Below are positions 4,150-54,279 of a DNA stretch of 54,449 nucleotides, in pieces. The stretch lies in the NCBI GenBank assembly GCA_903835075.1, contig CAILLM010000005.1, positions 1 through 54,449 on the forward strand, read 5' to 3'. Made by a program: the position numbers and the translations under genes. The notes under the pieces are model-generated. The model was not told the DNA's origin, made no database searches, and saw nothing but the letters and a program-made list of their open reading frames with translations. The DNA comes from Candidatus Staskawiczbacteria bacterium. GTDB taxonomy: Bacteria; Patescibacteriota; Minisyncoccia; Minisyncoccales; Staskawiczbacteraceae. Numbering within the stretch: the stretch's first letter is position 1; every line of letters starts with the position of its first letter.

Positions 4150-4446
4150 CTAATGTGTCACCGGACACCCTCCTGCCTTTATATCGCCCAAACTATTCCA
4201 ACTTCCTCCATTATATATTTTTTCAAATCCATTATTTTTTAAAATTTCCAGCGCTTGAGCGCTCCTGCTTCCAGATGCACAAACTAAAACTGTTGGCACC
4301 TCTTTTTGCAACCACGACAATGAATCTTCAATTTCATTTAACGGAATACTTAAAGAGCCTTGTATATGCCCCTCTTTGTATTCTTCTGGCGTGCGAACAT
4401 CAATAATTAACGCACCCTTTTCAATAATTTGTTTTATTTCTTCCAT
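4150..4446 (-). CDS. rhodanese-like domain protein
   Basis: IIDVRTPEEYKEGHI and active-site loop CASGSRS. Confidence 0.9.
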   Translation of the reverse strand: MEEIKQIIEKGALIIDVRTPEEYKEGHIQGSLSIPLNEIEDSLSWLQKEVPTVLVCASGSRSAQALEILKNNGFEKIYNGGSWNSLGDIKAGGCPVTH

Positions 4447-9705: not shown

Positions 9706-11424
9706 TTATCCTACTTCGTTTTGGTAACAAGTTTTACAATAAACAATTTCCGGGCGGTCTGGCGAATAGCTAGTTTCAAATTCATTAGTGCAACCTTCTT
9801 TCATGCAATGTCTGTGCCACAACTTAATTGGCGTACGTTGAGCCAACCTGGCAAAGTGACGACAATTTGGACAAAGATTTGGAATTGGTATTCCCATTTT
9901 TTTATAAAAATTTAGATCACTCGAAGTAATTTTAAAAGCTTCGGTGCATTGGTGATTGCATTTTCCTGCATGAGCGCAACCCACAACTTCTTTTAAAATT
10001 TCCTCTCCCACCCCCTCAATAGAATCGGGCACATCTTCTGCTTTTAATGTAATTGTATAATTTTTAGCAGAAAATTCTGCCCACCTATAGCCTTGTTTGG
10101 TTGCTTCTTCTTTTGTAATTGGAAAAAGTTCTTGCGCAATTGATTCGTTATATGCAAACCCATGAATCTCTAATGGAAAAGTTGAGCCATACCTCCATTC
10201 CCTACCCAAAGAATCAACATAGGGCATTTTATCCATGTGTTCAATAATTTTTGATACAAGTTCTTCGTATTCTTCTTTTGTGTATTGTTTGTTTAAGATG
10301 CAATATTGTTTTTTACGCAAACCAACGCAACCAAACAAATCTGATGAGCTATGACAATTTATACAATATTGTGCACGAATTAGTTGGTCCCAGCATTCGT
10401 TGGAAAAAGCAACAGAAGCACATTGTCTTCCAATGCTAGAACATTCATAAATAAGTTCTGAATTTTGCCCCCAATATGTATAATCCATTACATCTTTTCC
10501 ATCGGTAATTCCAAAAAGATATTTACCATCTTCAGCTTTTTCACAGTTAAACCCAAATTTTACATTTTTGCACTGTTCCAACCAATTACCAGAAATGTCT
10601 GTGCCGTGATTTTCAACCATCCAAGGAACAACATGCTTTAAAGAAAATTCTGTCATTTTCTTATGCATTTCTTCAACGCCTGCACGCGTTTTTGGCCAAA
10701 GAGTTTTAATTTTTTCTTTATATTCTTCTTTGGTATATTGCTCGTTAAAAATACAATAGTTTTTATTACGTAAATTTACGCATCCAAAACAATCTGTGCA
10801 GTTTTTGCAATTTAATAAAAACGCTGAATTTAAACAAGTATTGCATTCTCTTGAATAAATTAATCTGTTACAGCCGAAACAATCAACACAATCAAAACAT
10901 AATTCGCTAGAACGCAGGTTGTAGTTATCCATGCTATCTTTTGAATTCCATAGCGCTGTCCCATAAGAACAATTTTCATTTTTGTTAGCAGCAAACACCA
11001 AATAACAATCTTTATTATCACTAGCCCTATTAGTATATTCGCTGTTTACATTCGTCCCCTGCTGAATAATTCCCATTCTTGGTACTTTAAGAAATAAATC
11101 TTTAAACTGTTCAAAAAATGGTTTTGAAAAGTTATAATCTTTTTCATAAGATTGCCCATCCCACTTTTCAGACCACCAACAAGAATAACAATAAACAGTA
11201 TAGGGGCTATCAGGTGAGTATAATAAAATTTTGTCATTTCCACAAAGATTGCATTTTCTTTTGAAAAGTGACCGCTCGCCTCTCCACGCTAAACGTTTAA
11301 CCAACCTACATTCGGGACACCACGTTGGAGTAGGCACCTTCATTTTTTCGTAAAAGGCAAAGTCATCAACTTCAATTAAAAAGTCTTTCTTACAATTTTG
11401 ACATTCTTTACTTGCTTGTTCCAT
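9706..11424 (-). CDS. Cys-rich repeat protein with terminal zinc-ribbon-like CxxC pairs (paralog 1)
   Basis: CQNC/CPEC at N-term, CxxC/CFGC repeats, duplicated YCIxNxQYTKEEY, C-term CKTCY. Confidence 0.8.
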   Translation of the reverse strand: MEQASKECQNCKKDFLIEVDDFAFYEKMKVPTPTWCPECRLVKRLAWRGERSLFKRKCNLCGNDKILLYSPDSPYTVYCYSCWWSEKWDGQSYEKDYNFSKPFFEQFKDLFLKVPRMGIIQQGTNVNSEYTNRASDNKDCYLVFAANKNENCSYGTALWNSKDSMDNYNLRSSELCFDCVDCFGCNRLIYSRECNTCLNSAFLLNCKNCTDCFGCVNLRNKNYCIFNEQYTKEEYKEKIKTLWPKTRAGVEEMHKKMTEFSLKHVVPWMVENHGTDISGNWLEQCKNVKFGFNCEKAEDGKYLFGITDGKDVMDYTYWGQNSELIYECSSIGRQCASVAFSNECWDQLIRAQYCINCHSSSDLFGCVGLRKKQYCILNKQYTKEEYEELVSKIIEHMDKMPYVDSLGREWRYGSTFPLEIHGFAYNESIAQELFPITKEEATKQGYRWAEFSAKNYTITLKAEDVPDSIEGVGEEILKEVVGCAHAGKCNHQCTEAFKITSSDLNFYKKMGIPIPNLCPNCRHFARLAQRTPIKLWHRHCMKEGCTNEFETSYSPDRPEIVYCKTCYQNEVG

Positions 11425-11535
11425 ATTGTTTAATTCAATTATTTAATCCTACATCGTCTCGCCGAAGCTTTCAAGCGGAGGTGAGCGGCGCTAGGTTGAC
11501 ATCACTTCTCTGCGTTGATAGAATTAGGTAATTAG

Positions 11536-11606
11536 ACCGCTTAAGCGCTACCGCTTAAGCGGTCACCGAAAAGCGCTTAAGCGGTAGTCAAAAGCGCTTA
11601 AGCGGT
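11536..11606. repeat. array of four 14-bp palindromes ACCGCTTAAGCGGT (0-1 mismatch)
   Basis: Copies at 11536, 11550, 11572, 11593. Confidence 0.95.
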
Positions 11607-11647
11607 CCTTAAAATAAACGGATTTTCTAAAAAAAAATAACAAAAAA

Positions 11648-12358
11648 ATGAATAATAACGACTTTTTAACAATACAAGAATTTATTCAAAAATATGACGT
11701 TGCTGACATTAGAATCAGACGAAGAATTAGAAAGTACAAACTAGTTGACCCTCAAAAACTAGAGGGAAATTTAAGCGAAAGGCACGACAAAGGGGTCGGA
11801 AATATTATTCTTTTGAAAGAAAGTTTTTGGGTAAAAGAATTAGAAGCTGTAGCCAAAGAGACCGCTTATGCGCAACCGCTTAAGCGGTCAGACGAAAATG
11901 ACCAAAACCGCTTAAGCGGTACCCCCAACCGCAGAAGCGCCGAGTCTACCGACTATGCGGTCCCGCCAGAAACACCCGTACAAGCCGAACTTAACCGCTT
12001 AAGTGAAGCGGCATTGGCAGACAATCAAGTGGCTATTGATAAAGAATTTTTGGAGATATTGAAAGAAGACCGTGCTGAAAAAAAAGACTGGATTAAAAAA
12101 TATGATACCCTGCTGGTTGATTATAAAGCCAAAGATAATGAACTGGTGGAAAGAGAAAAGTTCTTGCAAGGTTTAATAGAAAAAGTAATTTCAGACGCCA
12201 GACACACAAAACAATTACTAGTGTCACAAATTCAGCACTTACAAAAACAACTTCACGCACCCAAAGAAGACCAGCCTTTCGGCGAAGCAGGAGAGGGGAC
12301 TGAATTTGAAAACGGCAACTTCACCGAAGCCGAAGAAAACAAGTCAATAAACGAATAA
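11648..12358 (+). CDS. putative DNA-binding protein: N-terminal HTH-like domain, repeat-encoded linker, coiled coil, acidic tail
   Basis: FLTIQEFIQKYDVADIRIRRRIRK resembles an excisionase/MerR-type HTH; heptad-rich second half; terminator follows. Confidence 0.65.
   Translation: MNNNDFLTIQEFIQKYDVADIRIRRRIRKYKLVDPQKLEGNLSERHDKGVGNIILLKESFWVKELEAVAKETAYAQPLKRSDENDQNRLSGTPNRRSAESTDYAVPPETPVQAELNRLSEAALADNQVAIDKEFLEILKEDRAEKKDWIKKYDTLLVDYKAKDNELVEREKFLQGLIEKVISDARHTKQLLVSQIQHLQKQLHAPKEDQPFGEAGEGTEFENGNFTEAEENKSINE
11861..12007. repeat. six intragenic copies of the 14-bp palindrome
   Basis: Perfect at 11875 and 11907; degenerate at 11861, 11928, 11948, 11994. Confidence 0.85.
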
Positions 12359-12372
12359 ATATTTATCCAAAC

Positions 12373-12398
12373 AAAAAAAGGGGACTAGCCCTTTTTTT
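12373..12398. terminator. bidirectional terminator
   Basis: A-tract, GGG/CCC stem, T-tract between convergent genes. Confidence 0.65.
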
Positions 12399-12425
12399 GT
12401 TATATACACACATTTAATCTATTTT

Positions 12426-12445
12426 AGGTTAACCATGGTTAACCT
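12426..12445. promoter_or_regulatory. perfect 20-bp palindrome AGGTTAACCATGGTTAACCT
   Basis: Read directly; shares a 16-bp core with 12678-12701. Confidence 0.75.
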
Positions 12446-12454
12446 GAGAAGTCC

Positions 12455-12640
12455 TTAATGTTTTATTATGGTTTTTAGTTTTTCTAAATCTATATCCTTT
12501 TTATAAATGATATAATCTCGTCCAATTTTTTGACCCAAAATTGAGCCCTGCCTTACTCTCTTAAAAACAGATATTCTACTGATGCCTAAAACTTTAGCCA
12601 GCTCCATTGTTGTATAATAATCTTTTTCTTTTATCTTCAT
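12455..12640 (-). CDS. small excisionase-like helix-turn-helix protein (HTH_17 type)
   Basis: YYTTMELAKVLGISRISVFKRVRQGSILGQKIGRDYII. Confidence 0.85.
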   Translation of the reverse strand: MKIKEKDYYTTMELAKVLGISRISVFKRVRQGSILGQKIGRDYIIYKKDIDLEKLKTIIKH

Positions 12641-12677
12641 TCTTTTAACCTTTAATATATTTATATTCTCTCACGCT

Positions 12678-12701
12678 TCAAGTTAACCATGGTTAACTTG
12701 A
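12678..12701. promoter_or_regulatory. perfect 24-bp palindrome TCAAGTTAACCATGGTTAACTTGA (operator-like)
   Basis: 37 bp upstream of the HTH gene start. Confidence 0.75.
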
Positions 12702-12732
12702 GTTTATTATACTATATTTTATCTATTTTAAC

Positions 12733-12761
12733 AAAAAGACCTACTGATTAGCAGGCCTTTT
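12733..12761 (-). terminator. terminator after comM
   Basis: AAAAAGACCTACT-GATT-AGCAGGCCTTTT, pairs with G-U on minus strand. Confidence 0.55.
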
Positions 12762-12765
12762 ATAT

Positions 12766-12793
12766 AATGCTTAAGCGCTACCGCTTAAGCGGT
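12766..12793. repeat. tandem pair of 14-bp palindromes overlapping the comM stop codon
   Basis: AATGCTTAAGCGCT-ACCGCTTAAGCGGT. Confidence 0.9.
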
Positions 12794-14320
12794 TTCAAAG
12801 TTTTTTGGAGAATATTGTAAGGCTTCGGCCATGTGGGGGACTGCAATTTCATCGACGCCATCTAAATCAGCAATTGTGCGCGCCACTTTTATCATTTTCA
12901 TATAGCTTCTTGCAGACAAGTTAAATTTTAAACTAGCTTGCCGTAATATTGCCTCAACATCTTTGGCCAGTTTGCAATATTTTTTAATGTGGCTATTTTT
13001 CATTTGGCTGTTTGAGCAAATGGTTTCTGTTGCAAAACGTGCTTCTTGTTTTTGTCTGGCCTGCATTACTCTTTTTCTTATTTTATCAGAAGCCTCTAAA
13101 AATTCAGAATTTTTTTGGTTATCCTCAAACTCAGTTGCGTCAACTGGCATAACAGAAATGTGTAAATCAATTCTATCTAAAATTGGCCCTGAAATTCTTT
13201 TTTGATATTTTTGAATTTGGTTTTGGCTACAGTTACAACTCTTTTTTGGGTGAAGTGCATATCCGCAAGGGCAGGGGTTGGCACTAGCTACCAACATAAA
13301 ATCAGCAGGGTAGGTGATGCGTTGCCTACTTCGCGATATTGTTAAATAACCATCTTCTAATGGTTGGCGAAGTGCTTCCATAATTGTACGGGGAAATTCA
13401 TTGAACTCATCTAAAAATAAAACTCCTCTGTGTGCCAAACTTATTTCACCAGGTTGTGGCTTTGAGCCACCGCCAACTAACCCAGCCAAAGAAGCTGTGT
13501 GATGTGGCGCACGAAACTGTCTGTTTGTGATTAGGCTTCCACCAGGTGGGATTCCACCAGAAGCTGAATAAATTTTTGTTACTTCCAAACTTTCTACATC
13601 ATTTAGTGGTGGCAAAATGCCTGGTAGGGCACGCGCCAACATCGTTTTTCCAGAACCAGGAGAGCCAATCATAATTATATTATGCCCACCAGCTGCTGCA
13701 ATTTCCATTGCTCTTTTTGCTTGCTCTTGCCCCAAGACTTCTTTCATATCAAATTCAACAATAGATTTTTTATCATCTTTAACGGCCTTATAAATAATGG
13801 GAAAAATTTCTTCTTGTCCCAAAAAATGTCTACACAATTGCCCAATGTCTTCAACTGGAAAAACTTTTACTCCTTTTATGGCGGCAGCCTCATTTGCGGA
13901 GTCTTTGGGTACATACAAATTTGTGTACCCAGATTCTTTTGCAAAAAGTGCCATTAAAAAAGCGCCCTTGGTGTGACGCAAACTTCCATCGAAAGATAAT
14001 TCTCCTAAAAATAATGACTTTTGTGGAATGGGAAATTCTAACACACTACTTAAAATTCCCAGGGCAATTGGTAAATCATACATTGAGCCCTCTTTTGGCA
14101 CATCAGCTGGCGCCATGTTTACAGTAATTTTTTTAGCAGGAAAATCAACATCACTGCTTTGTATGGCTGTGCGCACCCTTTCTTTGCTTTCATCAACTGC
14201 TTTACCAGCCAATCCCACAATTTCAAACCCTGGCAAACCTTTGTTAGCTAAATTAATTTCAATATCAACCTTTATTGTTTCCAACCCCAAGTTAACTATT
14301 GATGGCACTTTAATAAGCAT
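12785..14320 (-). CDS. comM: YifB/ComM Mg-chelatase-like AAA+ ATPase
   Basis: ITVNMAPADVPKEG, Walker A GSPGSGKT, PGEISLAHRGVLFLDE, NPCPCG, LSARSY. Confidence 0.95.
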   Translation of the reverse strand: MLIKVPSIVNLGLETIKVDIEINLANKGLPGFEIVGLAGKAVDESKERVRTAIQSSDVDFPAKKITVNMAPADVPKEGSMYDLPIALGILSSVLEFPIPQKSLFLGELSFDGSLRHTKGAFLMALFAKESGYTNLYVPKDSANEAAAIKGVKVFPVEDIGQLCRHFLGQEEIFPIIYKAVKDDKKSIVEFDMKEVLGQEQAKRAMEIAAAGGHNIIMIGSPGSGKTMLARALPGILPPLNDVESLEVTKIYSASGGIPPGGSLITNRQFRAPHHTASLAGLVGGGSKPQPGEISLAHRGVLFLDEFNEFPRTIMEALRQPLEDGYLTISRSRQRITYPADFMLVASANPCPCGYALHPKKSCNCSQNQIQKYQKRISGPILDRIDLHISVMPVDATEFEDNQKNSEFLEASDKIRKRVMQARQKQEARFATETICSNSQMKNSHIKKYCKLAKDVEAILRQASLKFNLSARSYMKMIKVARTIADLDGVDEIAVPHMAEALQYSPKNFETA

Positions 14321-14333
14321 ATTTTTTATACTT

Positions 14334-14361
14334 ACCGCTTAAGCGCTACCGCCTATGCGGT
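14334..14361. repeat. tandem pair of 14-bp palindromes upstream of comM
   Basis: ACCGCTTAAGCGCT-ACCGCCTATGCGGT, 13 bp from the start codon. Confidence 0.9.
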
Positions 14362-14391
14362 TATTTATTAATTTTATTTTTAAATAAATTT

Positions 14392-16101
14392 TTATGCAAC
14401 TTCTGCGTTATAACATTGCTCGCAATAAATAATTTCTGGCCTGGTGGGGGAGTAAGAAGATTGAATTTCTTTTGAACATTTTGCACATTGGCGATTCCAC
14501 AATTTGAATGGCGTACGTTGATGCAATCTGTTGTAGTGTCTGCAATTTGAGCATAGTCTTGGCAATGGCAAATTCATTGCACGGTAAAAAGCAAGTTCTG
14601 ATGGAATAATTTTAAAAGCTCCTGTGCATTGTTCGTTGCAATTACCCGCATGCTCGCAGGCTATAACTTGATTTAAAATGTCATCAGAAACATCTTTTAT
14701 ATGGTCGGGTAAATCAGCCGACTGAATTGTAATTTTATACTGCTTAACATCGGGCTCACGCCAATTAAATCCTTCTTCTAAAATTTCTTGTTTTGTTTTT
14801 GTGTAATATTCTTGCGCTATTGTTTCATTGTAGGCAAAGGGCGAAAGATCAGCAGGAAAAAATTCTCCATATTTGTATGTTCTTCCTTTTTTATCTACAT
14901 ACGGCATTTCATTCATTTGCTCAATAATTTTTGCTCTTAAAATTTCGTATTCTTCTTTTGTATATTGCTTGTTTAAAATACAATACTGTTTACTTCGCAA
15001 CCCCACACATCCAAATAAATCTTTTGAATTTTTGCAGGCATAAGTGTAATCAGTATTTTGGCAAGAATGAGTAAAAATAGAAAAAAGATTACGGGTGGCA
15101 TTGTCTCCCGTGTCTACAACCTCGTAAGAATTATTAAAATTTGCGCCGGCACCATAAGCATCATAAATATTGTTCATTTCCGCCGCATGAATGACATATT
15201 TACAATCTTCAACATCATTAAATATGTCAAAACCCATAAATATATTTTTAGAGTTCATAACGTTACCTCCTATAACATTTGCAGATTTATGGATAAATCC
15301 ATATCGTCTCGGATACTGTTTTATAAATTCAGCGAACCTTTTTCTAAAATCGCAAAGAACCTTATAACTACCAAAATCATATTTTGCCCTCTCTTTTGCA
15401 TAATCTTCTTTGGTATATTGTTCATTAAAAATGCAGTTTGATTTATTACGTAAATTTATGCAACCCAAAGAATCCATCATATTTTTGCAAGCATGAAGAA
15501 ACGAGCAGTTAACACTTTCGTCGCTGTCATAAGAGAAAAAAACATGATTTAAGCTTGAGCACAAGGTATTGTTATAACAATGAGTTTGATTAATCGCTTT
15601 ATAGAGGTCAAGGGAATTTTTACATTCCATAGCTCCAGCACAATATGACAAATCTTCACTTCTTAAGCTGGCATAAAAAAGATAACAATCCTTCATATCG
15701 AGGCTGTGGTTGCCGTACTCAGAATTTATACAATTAGAATTTGCCAAATTGGGTAAGGGTGCTTCTTCAAATAGTTCACGAAACTGCTGGAAGAAAGTTT
15801 TTGAAAAATCATACTCACGCTCAACCGCAAGTTGATCCCATTTGTCTGACCACCAATAATCTCTTTCATAAACAACTAGCGGTTGTTCGGGCGCAAACAT
15901 TGTAATAATATCTTTGCCAGTTGCATCACATTTTCTTTTATATAATGTGCGCTCATTTCTCCAATTCATTCGCCTAATTATTCTGCAGTCTGGGCAAAAG
16001 GTTGGTGCGGGCACCTTCATTTTTTCATAAAAATCAAAATCCTCGGCCTCTATTACAAAGTCTTTTTTACAATTTTGGCACACTTTATTTTCTTGTTCCA
16101 T
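14392..16101 (-). CDS. Cys-rich repeat protein with terminal zinc-ribbon-like CxxC pairs (paralog 2)
   Basis: Colinear with 9706-11424: CQNCKKDF, WWSDKWD, LFGCVGLR, CEHAGNCNEQC, CEQCY. Confidence 0.8.
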   Translation of the reverse strand: MEQENKVCQNCKKDFVIEAEDFDFYEKMKVPAPTFCPDCRIIRRMNWRNERTLYKRKCDATGKDIITMFAPEQPLVVYERDYWWSDKWDQLAVEREYDFSKTFFQQFRELFEEAPLPNLANSNCINSEYGNHSLDMKDCYLFYASLRSEDLSYCAGAMECKNSLDLYKAINQTHCYNNTLCSSLNHVFFSYDSDESVNCSFLHACKNMMDSLGCINLRNKSNCIFNEQYTKEDYAKERAKYDFGSYKVLCDFRKRFAEFIKQYPRRYGFIHKSANVIGGNVMNSKNIFMGFDIFNDVEDCKYVIHAAEMNNIYDAYGAGANFNNSYEVVDTGDNATRNLFSIFTHSCQNTDYTYACKNSKDLFGCVGLRSKQYCILNKQYTKEEYEILRAKIIEQMNEMPYVDKKGRTYKYGEFFPADLSPFAYNETIAQEYYTKTKQEILEEGFNWREPDVKQYKITIQSADLPDHIKDVSDDILNQVIACEHAGNCNEQCTGAFKIIPSELAFYRAMNLPLPRLCSNCRHYNRLHQRTPFKLWNRQCAKCSKEIQSSYSPTRPEIIYCEQCYNAEVA

Positions 16102-16137
16102 AATTTAAATTTATTTTTGAATTATAGCACAGTTAAA

Positions 16138-17031
16138 TTAGTTGAGGTAATATTTCCCATTATCTAAATTTATAAAACCCTTCAATTGCATAAGCGATAG
16201 GGAAGTGCCCAACTTGGCAACGGGAACCGAAAACAACCGCGCCATTTCGTCGGCTTTTAATGGCTCACGTTTTAATTGCTCAATAATTTTTTGTTCTAAA
16301 TTATCACCAGTATTTGCTGTAACTTTAGACTTGGCAGGTATCAATGTTTTTTGAGCTCCTGGTAAAACTTTAAAAAAATCTAAAATATCTTTTGCTTCGG
16401 TCACTGGGTATGCGCCCTCTTTAATAAGTTTAATTGTTCCTTTTGAAACTTCGCTTGTAATAGGTCCAGGAAGTGCAAAAATCTTTTTGCCAAATTTTGT
16501 GGCGTAACTAGCTGTAATTAAAGAGCCGGACTCTAAGGCAGCTTCTGTAACTAAAACTGCTTTTGATAATCCGGCTACAATTCTGTCCCTTTGAACATAG
16601 GTAAAAATTTGTGGTTGGGTTTTGCCCTCGTACTCAGAAATAATCAAGCCACCTGTGTCTAAAATTTCTTCATAAAGTTTTTTCTGGCTTGCTGGGTGAA
16701 TTAAATCAATTCCGCAAGGCATTACAGCAATAGTTTTTCCGCCACACTTAACTGCTGCAGAATGAGCTGCTTCATCGCCCCCATACATAAACCCCGAAAC
16801 AATTGTAACTCCTGCTGCAGCAACTTCTGTTACTAGCTGTTCGGTGGCTTTTCGGCCGTAATATGTTAAGTGGCGCGACCCAACAACAGACAAACAGTTT
16901 CTGAAAATATCTGGACTCCAATTACCTTTGTAATATAATTTTTTAGGCCCCAAACTTGCGCCAATTTTTTTCAATGCTTCTTTTAAAACTTTAGGATATT
17001 TATCACTATTGACCTCAACGACTTCTGCCAT
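16138..17031 (-). CDS. dprA: DNA processing protein DprA
   Basis: SVVGSR, IVSGFMYGGD, RDRIVAGLS, SGSLITA, ALPGPI, C-terminal winged helix. Confidence 0.94.
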   Translation of the reverse strand: MAEVVEVNSDKYPKVLKEALKKIGASLGPKKLYYKGNWSPDIFRNCLSVVGSRHLTYYGRKATEQLVTEVAAAGVTIVSGFMYGGDEAAHSAAVKCGGKTIAVMPCGIDLIHPASQKKLYEEILDTGGLIISEYEGKTQPQIFTYVQRDRIVAGLSKAVLVTEAALESGSLITASYATKFGKKIFALPGPITSEVSKGTIKLIKEGAYPVTEAKDILDFFKVLPGAQKTLIPAKSKVTANTGDNLEQKIIEQLKREPLKADEMARLFSVPVAKLGTSLSLMQLKGFINLDNGKYYLN

Positions 17032-25182: not shown

Positions 25183-25282
25183 CTCTATATATATGTATTT
25201 AGATATATTAGCTCAAATCTTGTGTTTTTTCAATTTTTTATGTAAAATATGCTAAACAATAATATAATTATCATTTGCAAAA

Positions 25283-25621
25283 ATGTCATCAGAAATAAGC
25301 AAAAAAGAGGTAAAAGCCTCTGGAGTAAAGTTTTTTATTGAAAAAGAGGGCAAAGAAGTTGCCCGCGCTTTTTTATATATAATGAGCAATGATTTAAAAA
25401 AAGAGCCGTTTGGGCTATTAGAGGATTTATTTGTTGATGAAAGCTTGAGGGGTCAAGGAATTGGCACAGAACTTTTAAATATAGTTATTTCTGAAGCAAA
25501 AAATCTTAACTGTTATAAACTTATTGCCACCAGTCGGCATGAAAGGGAAGGAGTACACAGAATGTATGAAAAAGCTGGTTTTGAAAAATTTGGAATAGAA
25601 TTTAAAATGTATTTTAAATAA
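25283..25621 (+). CDS. GNAT family N-acetyltransferase
   Basis: LFVDESLRGQGIGTELL acetyl-CoA motif; YEKAGF. Confidence 0.9.
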   Translation: MSSEISKKEVKASGVKFFIEKEGKEVARAFLYIMSNDLKKEPFGLLEDLFVDESLRGQGIGTELLNIVISEAKNLNCYKLIATSRHEREGVHRMYEKAGFEKFGIEFKMYFK

Positions 25622-25625
25622 CAAT

Positions 25626-33894: not shown

Positions 33895-35403
33895 TCAATT
33901 TCCAACCATGATTGGTGGCAGGCTTGGATTGACGGGGGGCGTTGTTGGCGTAGCAGGGGTTGGAGTGTTAGGATTGGGATCCTTGAACCCAGTTCCGCTG
34001 TAAACAACTTTTTGTGCCCAGTTTTTGCCGTAGTCATACGACATATAAACCGCGCCACCTGAAACAGTAGCCGCCTGAATTTGGCCGTCATAAGAAACCT
34101 TAACTGACGACCAACTGCGACTGCTATCTGCTGTTTTCCAGCTATATCCGCCGTCATCACTGGTGTACAAATAACCACCGGCAACTGTTGCCGTGATGTA
34201 TCTGCCATCAGACGAAGTGGCCACTCCAGACCAATCCCTAACCCCCTCATTAATCTGGGGCGTCCAAGTTTGGCACGAGTCCCTAGAGATATACAAATAT
34301 CCGCCTGTGGCCGAGGCCACGGCAGTATTACCTGCCAACTCTACAGCTGACCAATTCCGGACATTGTCCGTTGCCGTTGAAGTCCACGTTCTGCCATAGT
34401 CAGCAGAGGTGTAAATATACCCGCCCGAAACCGTTGCTGCAATAAGATTGCTAGATGCAGAAACTGCCGACCAGTTGTTGGCACCACCAATGGGGTTCCA
34501 TGTTGAACCAAGGTCGGCAGAAGCATAAATGTAACCTCCAGCAGCGGTTGCAACCAAGTAATTACTCGCCTCACAAATGGCCGACCAGTTCTGAACACTG
34601 GCAGTAGGACTCCACGTTGCACCACCATCTTTTGAATCATAAATGTATCCTCCATTAACCGTGGCAAACTGACGTGGTACTCCTTGACCAAGCATGGTCA
34701 CAGCTGACCAATTTCCCGTAACTCCCGCAGGATTCCACGTTACGCCATAATCGGCAGAGGAAGATATACGACCAGCCTTGTCTACGGCTGTTAGGTATTG
34801 GCCATCGTCTGATAGTGAAATGGCCGACCAATAACTGGTGTTTGTACCACCTCCGCCATAGCCCCCACCTCCGCCCCAACCTGGGTTGGAATTGTTATTC
34901 CCGGGGTCACTAGGACTACCGTAATAACCTCCACCGTTGGGATAACCCGAGTTGTCTCTATTGCCGTAGCCGTAGCCGTAGCCACCGCCGCCAATTAACA
35001 TTGCGCCCAAGCCATAGACTCCCGCGTTGGGAGCCTGACCGTTAGAGGACAAGCTGAGACTTGGGGTTGAGACATTGTTGCGCGACGTAGAATTTTTTGC
35101 CAAATAATTATTGGCCGATGAATCGGCTTTCTTGACAATGGTTCCGCCAGAAGCAACGCTGTTAACACCGCTAGCAAATGGCAGTGGATTTGTTGTCCTG
35201 TTGCCCTTATTGAATTTGGGCGTGAAAAGACTTGTGTGGAAGTTTGGTTTAACCGACACACGAGATTGCGTTGGCTCCGAAGGGGAGCTACACAGTTTGA
35301 GAAAGCTTGCTGACAGCAAGCACAGCGTGACAACAAAGGCCTTTTTCAGACCAATTTTCTTAGTGATGGTCGCGGCTACCGCGACGAATGGTGCGATGTT
35401 CAT
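33895..35403 (-). CDS. secreted/anchored BNR (Asp-box) repeat beta-propeller protein
   Basis: Seven SxDxGxTW-like boxes, Gly/Tyr/Asn-rich linker, Pro/Thr tail; AAGGAAGG RBS before ATG 35403; visibly GC-rich. Confidence 0.8.
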   Translation of the reverse strand: MNIAPFVAVAATITKKIGLKKAFVVTLCLLSASFLKLCSSPSEPTQSRVSVKPNFHTSLFTPKFNKGNRTTNPLPFASGVNSVASGGTIVKKADSSANNYLAKNSTSRNNVSTPSLSLSSNGQAPNAGVYGLGAMLIGGGGYGYGYGNRDNSGYPNGGGYYGSPSDPGNNNSNPGWGGGGGYGGGGTNTSYWSAISLSDDGQYLTAVDKAGRISSSADYGVTWNPAGVTGNWSAVTMLGQGVPRQFATVNGGYIYDSKDGGATWSPTASVQNWSAICEASNYLVATAAGGYIYASADLGSTWNPIGGANNWSAVSASSNLIAATVSGGYIYTSADYGRTWTSTATDNVRNWSAVELAGNTAVASATGGYLYISRDSCQTWTPQINEGVRDWSGVATSSDGRYITATVAGGYLYTSDDGGYSWKTADSSRSWSSVKVSYDGQIQAATVSGGAVYMSYDYGKNWAQKVVYSGTGFKDPNPNTPTPATPTTPPVNPSLPPIMVGN

Positions 35404-35584
35404 GATGCGTCCTTCCTTGTGGTTATTGTATTGTTTGGTTGTTGGAAATATGAAATTTTCAATGCTAGAAACATTTGACAAAATATTATTAATGTCCCTA
35501 ACGCTAGTTTACATTTATAATGCTATAACAACGGGGGTTTTGTCAAGCTTTTTTATCTTAATTCTGTTGTGCTATAATAATTTA

Positions 35585-36457
35585 ATGAATTTAACTTCTC
35601 CAACAATAATAAAAGAACTTCTTGCAAAATATGAAACCTACGCGTCAAAAGGACTTGGGCAAAATTTTTTAATAGACAAAAATGTTTTAAGAAAAATTGT
35701 TTTGGCAGGGGACATAGCACCAACAGACATAATATTGGAAGTTGGCCCTGGGCTTGGAGTACTAACACAAGAATTGGCACCTTTAGCAAAAAAAATTATT
35801 GCTGTTGAAAAAAGTGCCAGCATGCAAAATATTTTAAAAGAAACTTTGGCAGATTATAAAAACATAGAAATTATTGATGCCGACATTTTAACCCTAAACC
35901 CTGAATCCTATATCCTAAATCCTTACAAGGTAATTGCTAATATTCCATATTATTTAACTTCACCATTAATTAGAAAATTTTTAGAAATAGAAACACCTCC
36001 ACAAGAAATAGTTTTAATGATTCAAAAAGAGGTGGCACAAAGAATTTGTGCGCCAGTTGGCAAAATGAGCTTACTGGCAGTTTCTGTACAATTTTATGCA
36101 GATGTAAAAATTGTAAGCTATGTTTCAAAAAATTGTTTTTGGCCTGCACCAAAAATTGATTCAGCAATTATAAAAATAATTCCTCACAAACCCTTCGACT
36201 CCGCTCAGGGCAAAAAACAAATCTCGCATGATTTGTTTTTTGAAATTGTAAAAGCAGGATTTTCACAACCACGCAAACAACTTGGCGGAAATTTTTCTAA
36301 ATTCTTTCCGCCCAAGGCGGACCAGCCTGGGGCTGAAAAACTAAAAAAAGAGGGGATAGAGTCTTGGCTTTTAAAAAATAATATTAAACCCACTCAACGC
36401 GCCCAAACTTTATCAATCCAAGACTGGATCAATTTAACGCAAACTTTTTACATATAA
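35585..36457 (+). CDS. rsmA: 16S rRNA m6,2A dimethyltransferase
   Basis: LGQNFL, LEVGPGLG, ANIPYY, QKEVA; real start ATG 35585, not 35111. Confidence 0.95.
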   Translation: MNLTSPTIIKELLAKYETYASKGLGQNFLIDKNVLRKIVLAGDIAPTDIILEVGPGLGVLTQELAPLAKKIIAVEKSASMQNILKETLADYKNIEIIDADILTLNPESYILNPYKVIANIPYYLTSPLIRKFLEIETPPQEIVLMIQKEVAQRICAPVGKMSLLAVSVQFYADVKIVSYVSKNCFWPAPKIDSAIIKIIPHKPFDSAQGKKQISHDLFFEIVKAGFSQPRKQLGGNFSKFFPPKADQPGAEKLKKEGIESWLLKNNIKPTQRAQTLSIQDWINLTQTFYI

Positions 36458-39953: not shown

Positions 39954-40490
39954 ATGGAAAACACAAATCAAAGAATAATTTTTGAGGTGCCAGAAGATAC
40001 AACTTCAGCAAAAATAATTTATGATATTTTAAAAGAAAACAACATTACAGAAAAAACTGCTCAAGATCTTTTCAATAAAGCAGCCGTTATTATTAAGGCC
40101 ACAAAAGATGTTTTTGACAAAAAAATAACAGAAGATAAAATGTCTGAACTTTTGCAAAATGAGTTAAAAATTTCTAAAGATGTGGCTGGCGCTATAATAA
40201 AAGAAATAAAAGAAAAATTATTGCCTTTGGCAAAAAAAGTAAATATTCCAAGCGACAAGGTGGAAACAAACACGCCAAGTTTTTTTAATGCAGATGAAAC
40301 AAAAATAGAGCTTCCACCAGAAATTGAAAAAAATATTGCAGAACGTCCATCTGTTACAGAATCAGAAAATAGTGTTATTAATACTGTTGTAAAAAAAACT
40401 CCAAGAATTAAAAAAATTCCACCAACAGTTTCTGTGCCACCAACAACGCAACCAAGCAAACCAGATAATTATCGTGAACCAATAGAATAA
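39954..40490 (+). CDS. hypothetical protein
   Basis: Follows the virB6-like gene; ends DNYREPIE. Confidence 0.7.
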   Translation: MENTNQRIIFEVPEDTTSAKIIYDILKENNITEKTAQDLFNKAAVIIKATKDVFDKKITEDKMSELLQNELKISKDVAGAIIKEIKEKLLPLAKKVNIPSDKVETNTPSFFNADETKIELPPEIEKNIAERPSVTESENSVINTVVKKTPRIKKIPPTVSVPPTTQPSKPDNYREPIE

Positions 40491-40497
40491 AAAAATA

Positions 40498-40529
40498 CTT
40501 GTGCTGATTTTATCAAAGTATAAAAAAAT
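40498..40529 (-). repeat. REP-like 32-mer after terminator
   Basis: 30/32 identical to 33814-33845. Confidence 0.75.
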
Positions 40530-40556
40530 AGGGAAGCGTGATTGCTTCCCTTTTTT
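40522..40556. terminator. bidirectional terminator
   Basis: A-tract, AGGGAAGC-GTGATT-GCTTCCCT, T-tract. Confidence 0.75.
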
Positions 40557-40683
40557 GATGCTCTGTCTTTATTAAAGACAGCTTCTGGCTTTCATCTAGC
40601 CCTTTGATTTTTTTGTTGATTGTTTTGAGAGGTTTCCCTGTTCTGCGGAAGTTGTGCTCCCGCAGAACAGGATTGGCACCCGA

Positions 40684-41892
40684 TTAGTCGTAGCGATTTA
40701 TCGGGCGGTCTGGCTCGGGTTCGGGGTCGGGCGTTGGCGGCAGTCCATCGTCGTCGTCGTCATCTGGTGGCAAGGTCACGCGCGGGTTGCGCGGATTTTG
40801 CTGGTTGGCGTTGCGTGGGGGCCTTGGCCCGCCACGTCCCGCACCAGCAAATACACCTGCTCCACCACCACCAAGCGACAACACACTGATACCATCGGGG
40901 AGCGGGCCACCACCGCTTGATATGTCGGTTTCAACCCGAGAGAAGTTACTTGCCAAAGCTTTGGTCCGCAGGTCTTCCAACGCTCTTTCTTTGCGTTGGT
41001 ATTCACCGCTGGTTTTCAGCTCGGCAACAACTTCTTCCTCGGGTTTACCGCCAGAGTGGGCAACGTGTCGAGCAACCCATTTTTCCATCATCAAGTCAAT
41101 GGGGTCACCAATACGGGCGGCCTCACCTTGAGCAATGAGTTCTTGCTGGCTTCGGGCTTTTTTGGCCGCCTGATAGGCGGGGTCCAATTCGACGGATTTG
41201 ACAACAATAGAATTTGGAACAATTTCCAAACCCCAGTCATCTCGTGCTTCGTCAAAAGACCCCGTGAGTTTCAATTTCTTGAGCTCCTTCCACATGGCAA
41301 CACCATTACCCTTGGCCGACTGGACGTGGTTGACATCCCCGCTGAATACCCATGCGCGCAAGGCGCCATCTTGGCGGTCTTCCACCGCTTCCCTGACGAC
41401 ATTACGGGGAGAGACAAATAGGAATTTCCGAGGGTTGATGACCCTCATTTTGGAAGTGAATTTTACATCCACCCCAACACTCCCTGGTTGTTCTCCTGGG
41501 ACAGCAGGTGGCTCGGTGGTTTCAGCCTCAGAGGTAAAGGGGTTTGACGCCACATCACCTAAGCGGATATAAACACCTTCTCCAAATCCGTCTATCTCAT
41601 TATAATCAAGGTATTTAGCCGGCTTTACAAATGGCCAGAAGTAGACAATCCAACCGCCGAAGCGGAGGATGTGGAAACAACTGCCATAACTGTTAGGGCC
41701 AGGGCCAGCAACAATGTCGCCGTCAGCGTTGAAATGATGCTCAGCAAACTCCATTGCACAAAGCACAAACCTGCCACGGCTTTTAAATATTACCGCATAC
41801 CCCTCTTGAACTGTCAGAAATCTGACAATAAAGAATGGGGATGCAATAACACATAGGCCGATAAACCAAATCAAAATATACAATAAGAACAT
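40684..41892 (-). CDS. divergent SPFH/band-7-like membrane protein
   Basis: N-terminal TM, TVQEG..VI...G.F, WGLEI..V.SVE, Ala-rich coil, disordered Pro/Asp tail; GC-rich. Confidence 0.55.
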   Translation of the reverse strand: MFLLYILIWFIGLCVIASPFFIVRFLTVQEGYAVIFKSRGRFVLCAMEFAEHHFNADGDIVAGPGPNSYGSCFHILRFGGWIVYFWPFVKPAKYLDYNEIDGFGEGVYIRLGDVASNPFTSEAETTEPPAVPGEQPGSVGVDVKFTSKMRVINPRKFLFVSPRNVVREAVEDRQDGALRAWVFSGDVNHVQSAKGNGVAMWKELKKLKLTGSFDEARDDWGLEIVPNSIVVKSVELDPAYQAAKKARSQQELIAQGEAARIGDPIDLMMEKWVARHVAHSGGKPEEEVVAELKTSGEYQRKERALEDLRTKALASNFSRVETDISSGGGPLPDGISVLSLGGGGAGVFAGAGRGGPRPPRNANQQNPRNPRVTLPPDDDDDDGLPPTPDPEPEPDRPINRYD

Positions 41893-41995
41893 GGTTGACT
41901 CTCGCTTTCTTTTAGTTTCTCAAACAATCAAATAAGCACTTCGCACGGGACCGCCCCGCACAGAAACACTATTTGACAAGGTTCTCGAATGCTTT

Positions 41996-42024
41996 ACTAT
42001 ATCATATTAACACAACACTGTCAA
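41996..42024 (-). promoter_or_regulatory. sigma70-type promoter for the SPFH-like gene
   Basis: TTGACA-17 nt-TATAGT with extended TG. Confidence 0.7.
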
Positions 42025-52811: not shown

Positions 52812-52820
52812 TTATCCACA
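52812..52820 (+). promoter_or_regulatory. DnaA box upstream of dnaA
   Basis: Perfect TTATCCACA in the rpmH-dnaA intergenic region. Confidence 0.8.
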
Positions 52821-52923: not shown

Positions 52924-54279
52924 ATGAACAATATAGAACTCTGGCAATCAGTCCTATCACAAATGCAGTTCCACATCTCTAGAGCGAATTTTGCTACTTG
53001 GTTTCAAAACACAGAAATTATTTCTAAAGACAATGAAAAAATAATAATTTCTGTCCCAAATGCTTTTTCTAAAGAGTGGTTAAGCAATAAATATAATAAG
53101 TTAATTTTAAAGACTCTTCACGATATAGACGACTCTATAAGAGAGTTGGAATTTGTAATAAAACCACAGCCAATCAAAAATACACCAATAAAGAATACAT
53201 CTGGAATAGAGGAGCAGGAAGAAATCCAATTAAAATTTGAAGAATTTAAAATAAATAAGGAAACCAACCTTAATCCACGATATACATTTAATAGTTTTGT
53301 AGTTGGCTCATTTAATGAATTGGCGCATGCAGCGGCACTAGCAGTAGCAGACAACCCTGGTTTTACTTATAACCCTTTATTTATTTATGGTGGTACGGGC
53401 TTAGGAAAAACACACTTAATACAAGCTATTGGAAATAAAATAAATGACGAACTAAAAAAGAAAAAAATAAAGTATATTTCTTCTGAAAAATTTGTTTCTA
53501 GCATTGTTTCTGCTATTAGAACAAACACAATGGAAACATTTAAGGCTAGTTTGGCGCCTATTGATGTTTTGATTTTAGATGACATACAATTTATTGCTGG
53601 AAAAAATAAAAGCCAAGAAGAGTTTTTTCATATTTTTAATTCTTTATATGAAAAAAATAAACAAATAATTCTTTCCTCAGATAGACCGCCTAATGCTATC
53701 GCCGAACTTGAAGACAGATTAAGGTCTAGGTTTGAAGGGGGGATGATAGCTGACGTCAGCTTACCAGACTATGAAACAAGATTAGTTATTTTAAAAACAA
53801 AATTGCAAGAAAAAAATGCCGACTTGCCAGAAGATGTTTTAGACTATATTGCTGCTAATGTTAAAAAAAATATTCGGGAGCTAGAGGGCGCTTTAAATAA
53901 AATTTTAATTCATAATAAAATAAACCCTGGATTAAATCTAGAAATGGTTAAAAAACTACTTAGAGGTTTTGTTTTTTCTCCATTCGATGTAGCAAATTAC
54001 AAAAAAATAATTGAAACAGTGGCCAAATTTTACAACTTAGAAGAAAAAAATTTATTTGATCCAACAAGAAGAAAGGAAATTGTAAAACCAAGACAAGTTG
54101 CTATGTTCTTATTAAGGAAAGAATTAAAATATTCTTTTCCAGCTATTGCTAGAAAGTTTGGCGGGAAAGACCACACAACAGCAATTTACGCTTTTAAAAA
54201 GATTGAAGCGGAAAATGAAGAAAACAACAAATTAACAGAAGAATTAAACCTAATAAAACAGAGAATATACAGTGGATAA
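52924..54279 (+). CDS. dnaA: chromosomal replication initiator DnaA
   Basis: YNPLFIYGGTGLGKTHL, DDIQF, RSRF.GG, NIRELEGAL, DHTT. Confidence 0.98.
   Translation: MNNIELWQSVLSQMQFHISRANFATWFQNTEIISKDNEKIIISVPNAFSKEWLSNKYNKLILKTLHDIDDSIRELEFVIKPQPIKNTPIKNTSGIEEQEEIQLKFEEFKINKETNLNPRYTFNSFVVGSFNELAHAAALAVADNPGFTYNPLFIYGGTGLGKTHLIQAIGNKINDELKKKKIKYISSEKFVSSIVSAIRTNTMETFKASLAPIDVLILDDIQFIAGKNKSQEEFFHIFNSLYEKNKQIILSSDRPPNAIAELEDRLRSRFEGGMIADVSLPDYETRLVILKTKLQEKNADLPEDVLDYIAANVKKNIRELEGALNKILIHNKINPGLNLEMVKKLLRGFVFSPFDVANYKKIIETVAKFYNLEEKNLFDPTRRKEIVKPRQVAMFLLRKELKYSFPAIARKFGGKDHTTAIYAFKKIEAENEENNKLTEELNLIKQRIYSG

Follow-up and report, generated by a model that had tools for sequence, protein, structure and literature searches.

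What is the function of a short palindrome that recurs both in front of a gene and within its coding sequence? This question is raised by a locus of a Candidatus Staskawiczbacteria genome (G000; 794,466 bp in 11 contigs, 35% G+C), of which one entire contig of 54,449 bp was analyzed and is referred to as the window. Here, copies of the 14-bp palindrome ACCGCTTAAGCGGT cluster around and inside an open reading frame (ORF) encoding 236 amino acids (aa), which we call ORF236 (11648..12358, + strand). On balance, we favor the explanation that a dimer of the ORF236 protein binds the palindromes, represses its own gene, and builds a local nucleoprotein complex, in a layout like that of pSK1 Par and RacA.

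Upstream of the gene, a sigma-70-type promoter (TTGACA-17-TAGAAT, 11 of 12 matches) was predicted on the + strand at 11496..11524, with a TG before the −10 hexamer (extended −10). It was the top promoter-like site within 11300–14500, and the same TTGACA...TAGAAT block lies 5′ of the array at the loci of all five genomes in which the gene was found. Four palindrome copies (11536, 11550, 11572, and 11593) form a leader array at 11536..11606, which begins 12 nt past the −10 hexamer, i.e. about 4–5 nt past the expected transcription start. Between the end of this array and the ATG at 11648 lies an A-rich stretch of 41 nt. A second, intragenic array at 11861..12007 comprises the copies at 11861, 11875, 11907, 11948, and 11994 together with a four-mismatch relic at 11928.

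Distribution of the palindrome and of its gene

Scanning of the window bore out the palindrome coordinates listed in a first reading of the sequence (hereafter the original prediction). Perfect copies of ACCGCTTAAGCGGT start at 11550, 11875, 11907, and 12780, copies with one mismatch at 11536, 11572, 11593, and 14334, and copies with two to three mismatches at 11861, 11948, 11994, 12766, and 14348; the relic at 11928 reads ACCGCAGAAGCGCC. Each unit consists of the half-sites ACCGC and GCGGT around the 4-nt centre TTAA, and consecutive units, as read in the sequence, are separated by linkers of 0 or 5–8 nt. Besides the two main arrays, abutting pairs were found at 12766..12793 and 14334..14361. 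These bracket comM (yifB; 12785..14320, − strand), which encodes a Mg-chelatase-like AAA+ protein (Pfam Mg_chelatase, E = 4.5e-93). The first pair lies at the comM 3′ end, upstream of a gene for a 61-aa helix-turn-helix (HTH) protein, and its copy at 12780 provides the last comM codons ACC GCT TAA; the second lies 14 bp upstream of the comM start codon.

Allowing up to three mismatches, the window contained 15 matches, compared with 0.96 ± 0.99 expected and a maximum of four in 100 shuffled sequences, and 13 of these 15 fell within 11536–14361. The remaining two, at 4250 and 41653, have three mismatches each and are at chance level, so that the initial statement that no copies occur elsewhere in the window holds for close copies only. 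Genome-wide, the locus accounted for all eight copies with at most one mismatch (window 11536–14347), for nine of 11 with at most two, and for 13 of 34 with at most three; likewise, all eight occurrences of the 10-mer core CGCTTAAGCG were located there. Thus, the motif belongs to a single locus, unlike generic repetitive extragenic palindromes (REPs), which are scattered over the genome.

ORF236 belongs to a very narrow family: a search for its members returned 46 proteins of 60–100% identity among 5.8 billion clusters, the named ones all belonging to Candidatus Staskawiczbacteria, and a profile search gave 13 matches among 1.84 billion representatives. Among GTDB genomes, four of 25 further members of the genus had the gene, compared with none of 35 from other genera; hence five of 26 genus representatives bear the module, i.e. 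the gene with its arrays. Copies of ACCGCTTAAGCGGT with at most one mismatch were found 8–13 times in exactly these five genomes, always at the locus of the gene; the stretch that they cover there measures 2.8 kb in G000 and does not exceed 4 kb in the other four. None occurred in 13 other genomes of the same genus that were searched, and 43 genomes of other genera had zero or one chance-like match each. Within the genus, gene and motif co-occur strictly. A REP-like repeat or a miniature inverted-repeat transposable element (MITE) was ruled out as a candidate, given eight of eight copies at one locus and none in the 13 genomes of the genus that lack the gene.

The arrangement of the arrays was compared across 13 loci with a complete 5′ end, namely the window, the four other genomes, and eight of nine metagenome contigs carrying close family members among the matches listed (the ninth lacks the 5′ half). 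Every one of these loci has both a leader array (4–8 copies) and an intragenic array (4–7 copies), and 11 of the 13 share the start of the first intragenic pair, at ORF position +213/+227. The spacings first noted in the window, 14 bp for abutting units and 19–22 bp for the others, recur at the 12 related loci: steps in the leader arrays were 14 bp (29 times) and 19–22 bp (28 times), and those in the intragenic arrays 14 bp (19 times), 20–22 bp (18 times), and 32–33 bp (16 times). No occurrence of the 14-mer ACCGCTTAAGCGGT was found in the literature searched, where the term 'Staskawiczbacteria' together with palindromes led only to a preprint on TIGR arrays (10.64898/2026.09.09.750476).

More distant relatives with an HTH and a coiled coil were detected in genomes of another family (G347, locus L027, 1330–2670; G398, L028; G274, L034) with E-values from 6e-11 to 7.5e-5. 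Immediately downstream of the relative at L027, and likewise at L028, the opposite strand carries a small, very acidic ORF. Intermediate remote relatives from the profile search (P0051–P0057), which stem from Logan, ENA, and JGI records, have linkers with other short repeats, and the linker of P0055 contains RLSE/TDYS/PLIS relics. A genome scan for relatives returned two loci only, both already known.

Contigs from four lake-water DNA runs of one study, three of which are possible sources of the DNA analyzed here, showed only co-occurring related strains, with contig ends or breaks near the arrays. One short contig (run X2) joins 11561 to 12043, its shorter side being 28 nt, and thereby skips 481 bp from the leader array to just past the intragenic array. 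The joint may stem from misassembly at the repeats or from a related strain, or it may reflect a genuine deletion.

Selection on the intragenic array

Inside the gene, the palindrome is read in all three frames and yields the linker peptides TAYA, PLKR(S), and NRLS(G/E). Across the 13 genes, the codons behind these peptides are nearly fixed: PLKR was encoded by CCGCTTAAGCGG in 16 of 16 cases, RLSG by CGCTTAAGCGGT in 15 of 16, and TAYA by ACCGCTTATGCG in 16 of 20. Several of the codons involved are rare in the genome (CCG 0.105, CTT 0.162, AAG 0.191, and CGG 0.032; usage in 408 long ORFs), and the G+C content of the linker region amounts to 0.45–0.58 vs. 0.30–0.38 in the rest of the gene. In comparisons between orthologues, identical residues were encoded by identical codons in 427 of 437 cases (97.7%) for the first intragenic pair, vs. 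2650 of 4293 (62%) for the winged helix and 2726 of 4566 (60%) for the coiled coil.

A stop codon would arise in one of the frames. The original prediction had pointed out that the two copies in this frame of the window carry TAT instead of TAA, and this pattern proved to be general: position 9 is T in 22 of 22 frame-0 intragenic copies, and A in 49 of 50 intragenic copies of the other frames as well as in 70 of 70 leader copies. The use of rare codons without synonymous drift, together with the frame-specific TAT, shows that selection acts on the nucleotides while the ORF is kept open, as had been proposed at the outset. Hence, the object of selection is the DNA or RNA sequence, and not the peptide. 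Concerted evolution among the copies could add to their uniformity, yet it leaves the frame-specific exception unexplained.

Predicted structure of the ORF236 protein

ORF236 had no match to a Pfam family at E ≤ 0.1 nor to one in NCBIfam or PHROGs at E ≤ 0.01, and no sequence-profile membership in HTH_17, MerR_1, or TIGR01764 was detected with these three collections. A profile of 42 sequences compared with all PDB chains gave a lamin coiled coil (E = 0.15) as the sole match at E ≤ 10.

An AlphaFold2 model based on 42 relatives divides the protein into an N-terminal winged-helix domain (residues 6–64; 11663–11839), a disordered linker (residues 65–109; 11840–11974), a single long helix with coiled-coil character (residues 110–203; 11975–12256), and a disordered acidic tail (residues 204–236; to 12358) that contains the conserved motif FENGNFTE. 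In the 42-sequence alignment, the stretch of the recognition helix D20, R22, I23, R24, R25, I27, R28, and K29 is invariant, and so are G223, F225, and E227 within FENGNFTE. Modeled alone, the N-domain reached a predicted local distance difference test (pLDDT) score of 87.8 and showed the order beta-alpha-alpha-beta-beta-alpha (E6–8, H9–16, H20–33, E42–47, E51–57, and H58–64).

Structural comparison of the N-domain by VIA-align gave a list dominated by excisionases and MerR-type winged helices (Z = 6.1 to 3.9, in a range below 8 that, by the tool's own warning, may reflect a common arrangement). The top match was the Klebsiella excisionase KpR49 (Z = 6.1; root-mean-square deviation (rmsd) 3.1; 60 aa), and further excisionase-type matches were Tn916 Xis (Z = 5.1), Pukovnik Xis (5.0), and RdfS (4.5). 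The list also included the N-terminal winged helices of ParA2 (Z = 5.8) and P1 ParA (Z = 5.4), CvkR (Z = 4.5), GlnR, BmrR, SoxR, and BldC. The two proteins that the original prediction had named as models, pSK1 Par and RacA, were both among the matches, but neither ranked at the top: the DNA-binding domain (DBD) of pSK1 Par (8csh_A) superposed with Z = 4.2 (rmsd 2.6 Å, 50 of 53 residues) and that of RacA (5i41_B) with Z = 3.9 (rmsd 2.9 Å, 52 residues), both modest values. With the whole model, only long helices were retrieved. Because the Z values are modest, we take the fold class as supported and leave specific kinship apart; the models thus support a MerR/excisionase-type winged-helix DNA-binding fold for the N-domain.

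For the long helix, a homodimer model of residues 105–210 reached a score of 0.50, a value attained by 20 of 30 solved homo-pairs and by one of 23 single chains, compared with 0.00 for the best control (pLDDT 82). Contacts agreed to at least 89% between runs and were in register (155–155, 152–152), so that the modeled coiled coil is parallel. This supports, but does not show, that the long helix pairs as a parallel dimeric coiled coil. A parallel dimer would place two winged helices at one end, which suits a palindromic site. The HTH-coiled-coil layout seen initially therefore stands as a predicted winged helix followed by a modeled parallel dimer; sequence homology to RacA or pSK1 Par does not accompany it.

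Proposed mechanism and its alternatives

From these predictions, we consider it likely that the ORF236 protein binds the motif as DNA, and, with somewhat more reserve, we also expect it to repress its own gene. In the mechanism that we propose, the parallel coiled coil would set the two winged helices side by side to read the half-sites ACCGC and GCGGT, and the abutting and two-turn-spaced sites would permit cooperative filling. Once cooperatively filled, the leader array just past the transcription start could shut off the own promoter. Together with the comM pairs, the intragenic array, which starts 213 bp inside the gene, may widen the complex to a dnaA-proximal nucleoprotein patch of 1–3 kb, and the conserved acidic FENGNFTE motif might recruit a partner. 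Promoter, leader array, and the gene with the further array inside it would then make up a cassette of about 1 kb equipped with its own putative binding sites, and we are inclined to regard this cassette as self-contained.

Several observations have to be set against this reading. Regarding the protein, Foldseek found no PDB match at E ≤ 0.001 for either the whole model or the N-domain, the structural Z values do not exceed 6.1, and neither sequence kinship to RacA, Par, or any solved structure nor a protein family was detected for ORF236. Every array-bearing homologue has the same motif and the same invariant helix, which means that co-variation cannot support the pairing of protein and motif. 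The expectation that homologues carry palindrome arrays of their own held for every one of the 12 related loci whose 5′ end is complete, but no arrays were found at the three remote relatives (G347, G398, and G274) when their loci were read as DNA; the surroundings of these relatives are a conserved cluster of tRNA genes in the order Arg-His-gene-Arg, with Ala-Ser coming next if the locus reaches far enough. In one module-bearing genome, G004, comM lacks the sites, which makes control of comM a non-essential feature of the system. The module is absent from 21 of the 26 genus representatives and is therefore dispensable. On a NusA tree, the five module-bearing genomes require at least three gains or losses, and the well-supported branches force at least two; this tree is based on a single gene, has many weak forks, and covers 21 of the 26 genomes (two rows were dropped and three had no match at the threshold). 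A dispensable and patchily distributed module argues against a core role in segregation. Finally, three observations concern RNA: both arrays lie within the predicted transcript, the 120-nt leader RNA has a predicted fold of −48.2 kcal/mol (z = −8.4), and the centre TTAA is invariant in non-coding copies, which a hairpin loop recognized by a protein would also explain.

These last points raise the possibility of a role as RNA. The palindromes could form mRNA hairpins, also in the comM leader, that set stability or translation, or they could be processed or bound as small RNAs, perhaps by ORF236 itself. The arrays would in that case belong to the gene as an RNA element, much as TIGR arrays belong to tas genes. 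In line with this, both main arrays are located 3′ of the predicted promoter and should hence be transcribed, the A-rich start region is left unpaired in the leader fold, and the invariant TTAA is loop-like. There is also a precedent in the same bacterial group, as stem-loop TIGR arrays, including one from Candidatus Staskawiczbacteria, can lie within tas coding sequences in regions that encode disorder, according to the preprint (10.64898/2026.09.09.750476). We nevertheless consider an RNA role improbable. Positions 2 and 13 of the palindrome vary in 51 of 158 sites, and of these variants 47 leave the pair broken, four form a wobble, and none is compensated. Furthermore, 20 sites have an A5 opposite G10, which breaks the pair 5/10. 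Such uncompensated variation is more easily reconciled with two half-sites that are recognized separately than with a hairpin under selection, and for this reason DNA recognition is preferred over RNA. In addition, no consistent unit-to-unit complementarity was seen across loci, and Rfam gave no family above the gathering score (three chance-level rows, E = 0.4–0.9). A perfect 14-bp palindrome beside a predicted dimeric winged-helix protein also has the textbook form of an operator.

A TIGR array proper was ruled out as a candidate, given the lack of a Nop protein, of box C/D motifs, and of variable spacers. The Nop domain was absent from ORF236 (Pfam), PF01798 was found in none of the five module-bearing genomes at E ≤ 0.01, and 11536–11606, read by inspection without TIGRFinder, contained no box C/D motif and no variable pair of ~9-nt spacers.

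Position relative to dnaA

Chromosome positioning would be a wider role for a DNA-bound ORF236 complex. In the window, dnaA is located at 52924–54279, about 41 kb from the module, with perfect DnaA boxes at 52812 and 54352. For G024, G011, and G004, the corresponding distances are 44, 36, and 20 kb, respectively, and in G025 module and dnaA are on separate contigs. Hence, the module lies 20–44 kb from dnaA in four of five genomes, where both are on one contig, and this includes one genome with different neighbours. The original prediction placed the system about 40 kb from oriC. The distance to dnaA agrees with this figure, but the position of the origin is less certain: at ~25.2–25.6 kb (25183–25625), gene orientation in the window changes from − to + and the GC skew flips. 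The cumulative GC-skew minimum found there is 27 kb from dnaA. This would indicate an origin away from dnaA or, alternatively, a rearrangement boundary at this point.

Two 2-kb bins of the window, 34001–36000 and 40001–42000, have a G+C content of 0.446–0.449 vs. ~0.35 elsewhere.

Matches to ParB_N (PF02195) were present in nine of 26 genus genomes, mostly in ORFs of 382–500 aa and once in an ORF of 176 aa. For G000, matches were listed at C2:15419–15652 and C4:146739–147008, and the four other module-bearing genomes had none. By this model, a canonical ParB was not evident in the 26 genomes of the genus. Since most genus genomes have neither ParB_N nor the module, the latter cannot be the general segregation device of the genus.

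It appears doubtful that the complex serves chromosome positioning, anchoring, or segregation beyond the local regulation of itself and comM. A still bolder proposal, which we rate as unlikely, is that of a portable one-gene cassette for chromosome positioning in bacteria without ParABS. Its linker would be written in three frames by its own centromere-like array, which would make protein and cis-site one inseparable 1-kb unit. By linking both arrays with the nearby pairs, the dimer would form a compact origin-proximal complex, and a partner would take hold of it via the FENGNFTE tail.

Neighbouring genes

The module adjoins a region of variable gene content. Farther out, the window encodes two paralogous Cys-rich proteins of ~570 aa; yraN and nusA lie to one side of the module, and dprA lies to the opposite side. 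G004 has the cassette alone, as promoter, array, and gene, between a LysM/M23 peptidase gene and a gene for a DksA-type zinc-finger protein; there (comM locus L043), as well as in G015 (L044), which lacks the module, dprA-comM-yraN are contiguous and free of the motif. In the window, G024, G011, and G025, the three genes are split by variable hypothetical genes (12785–17031 in the window). This difference points to a local hotspot for gene insertion. At all five loci where the module adjoins comM, one or two copies of the palindrome lie 12–81 bp upstream of comM or of a preceding short ORF. As the comM sites occur only where the module adjoins, they track the proximity of the module and not comM as such.

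A hotspot of this kind invites the explanation that the palindromes are scars of recombination or insertion, or a local selfish repeat, and that the protein serves a small mobile island around dprA-comM-yraN as a recombination-directionality factor of the excisionase type. Such an island would account for the excisionases (Z = 6.1, 5.1, 5.0, and 4.5) among the best structural matches of the N-domain, for palindrome pairs at both ends of comM, one of them exactly at the stop codon, and for copy numbers that vary among loci along with a patchy distribution in the genus. We judge it to be quite improbable, however. No integrase, transposase, or recombinase was found by Pfam among five proteins of the window and ten of four related loci, and excisionases lack a coiled coil of 95 residues. 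Nor would a spreading repeat be likely to remain within 3 kb in five genomes or to hold the first intragenic pair at a constant place in 11 of 13 loci. No relative of ORF236 turned up in collections of viral contigs, phages, or plasmids, tblastn found no match in 72,556 plasmids, and no abutting palindrome pair was seen in viral contigs.

The 61-aa HTH gene (12455–12640; excisionase family, matching HTH_17 and TIGR01764) offers another candidate for the binder. If the sites served this protein, or a factor encoded elsewhere, in the control of comM and ORF236, the latter would be their target and not the protein that binds them. Relatives of the small gene lie within 4 kb of the module in six of 13 loci, and the presence of sites 5′ of comM at all module-adjoining loci would also agree with a separate regulator. 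Yet the gene was not found near the module in G025 nor within 12 kb of it in G004, where the cassette stands alone; its flanks carry a different palindrome (GGTTAAC-N4-5-GTTAACC), and it has paralogues elsewhere in the genome. With only ORF236 related one-to-one to the motif, this alternative is very unlikely.

Least probable of all appears a remnant of a plasmid-like replicon, in which an iteron array and an initiator gene would have integrated near the chromosomal origin. Short repeats in steps of ~21 bp, a winged-helix gene, and an A-rich stretch are reminiscent of iteron origins. On the other hand, the sites are palindromes and not direct iterons, half of them are intragenic, and a single winged helix with a long coiled coil is unlike initiators with two winged helices. 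Plasmid matches were absent, and the contigs hold dnaA and housekeeping genes.

Around the 61-aa HTH gene, a second palindrome, (C)AGGTTAAC-N4-GTTAACCTG, occurs at 12427–12449 and 12679–12702 and brackets the gene. Six copies were found in the genome, the others being at C2:57986, C4:51425, C7:12161, and C8:79819 of G000. Variants with N4-5 were present twice each in L010, L011, L017, L020, and L022, all loci with an HTH homologue, which they bracket in L010, L011, and L017. Two paralogues of the HTH gene (on C9 and C6) do not adjoin other copies of the second palindrome. Possibly, this gene and its palindrome form a separate small regulator with operators.

The Cys-rich paralogues are encoded at 9706–11424 and 14392–16101, both on the − strand, and are 46% identical. 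Treble-clef zinc-finger matches were obtained at their ends only, the large middle part having no family; relatives of these proteins are encoded near the module in L010 and L014.

Comparison with known systems

If the protein binds the sites, the locus would be a clean natural case of dual coding, with ~45 codons set by the operator or centromere array of the gene itself and a stop codon in one frame dodged by a single forced base change. It would also add a sequence-orphan family to the few single-protein DNA organisers that combine a winged helix with a coiled coil (RacA, pSK1 Par, and RocS), in a setting, the Patescibacteria, where chromosome organisation is almost unstudied. Moreover, the small cassette might find use as an orthogonal pair, either of repressor and operator or for DNA tagging.

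In ParABS systems, a parS centromere site lies inside the parB/spo0J gene near the origin. The ORF236 locus is similar in that sites are found, apparently near the origin, within the coding sequence of their own, here predicted, binder. It differs in having an array in three frames instead of one site, and ORF236 lacks ParB_N (PF02195). With TIGR-Tas systems, the locus shares palindrome-containing arrays upstream of, downstream of, or inside the associated gene, where they encode disorder and keep the frame open, as the preprint describes them (10.64898/2026.09.09.750476). In contrast to these, the units at ORF236 are 14-bp palindromes with a 4-nt centre, and neither a Nop domain nor box C/D motifs nor variable spacers are present.

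On pSK1, whose Par is a single-protein plasmid partition system of Staphylococcus, repeats are found upstream of par. The likeness to pSK1 Par (8csh) lies, with respect to arrangement only, in a single gene preceded by a repeat array that separates it from its promoter region. It extends to the protein, since RacA, pSK1 Par, and RocS have been described as a MerR-type winged helix followed by a coiled coil and a disordered C-terminus (PMC11500499), and the DBD of Par superposes on that of ORF236 with the modest Z = 4.2 given above. As a lead only, the look-alikes of ORF236 in the ESM Atlas include DUF536 clusters at 0.88. Differences from pSK1 Par and RocS are the absence from ORF236 of DUF536 (PF04394, E ≤ 0.1) and of a MinD-like amphipathic C-terminal helix, its tail being acidic and predicted to be disordered. 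There is no sequence similarity to Par, which is encoded on a plasmid, whereas ORF236 is chromosomal (on contigs with dnaA, nusA, dprA, and comM), and the ORF236 locus has perfect 14-bp palindromes and a second array inside the gene.

RacA of Bacillus subtilis (5i41 and 5i44) likewise has a winged helix (DBD Z = 3.9), a disordered region, and a coiled coil, and it binds a clustered GC-rich 14-bp palindrome (ram) near the origin (PMC4914108). The ram sites are spread over the origin region, whereas those of ORF236 do not extend beyond a single locus of no more than 3 kb. ORF236 is further set apart as an accessory gene of an uncultured genus of Patescibacteria that has no sequence homology to RacA and bears its own putative sites. 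In functional terms, and by analogy, the closest counterparts of the cassette are RacA, together with the clustered ram sites, and pSK1 Par, together with the repeats that accompany it. ORF236 is a new protein family with a familiar layout, and its unusual twist is that the site array doubles as its own linker-coding DNA.

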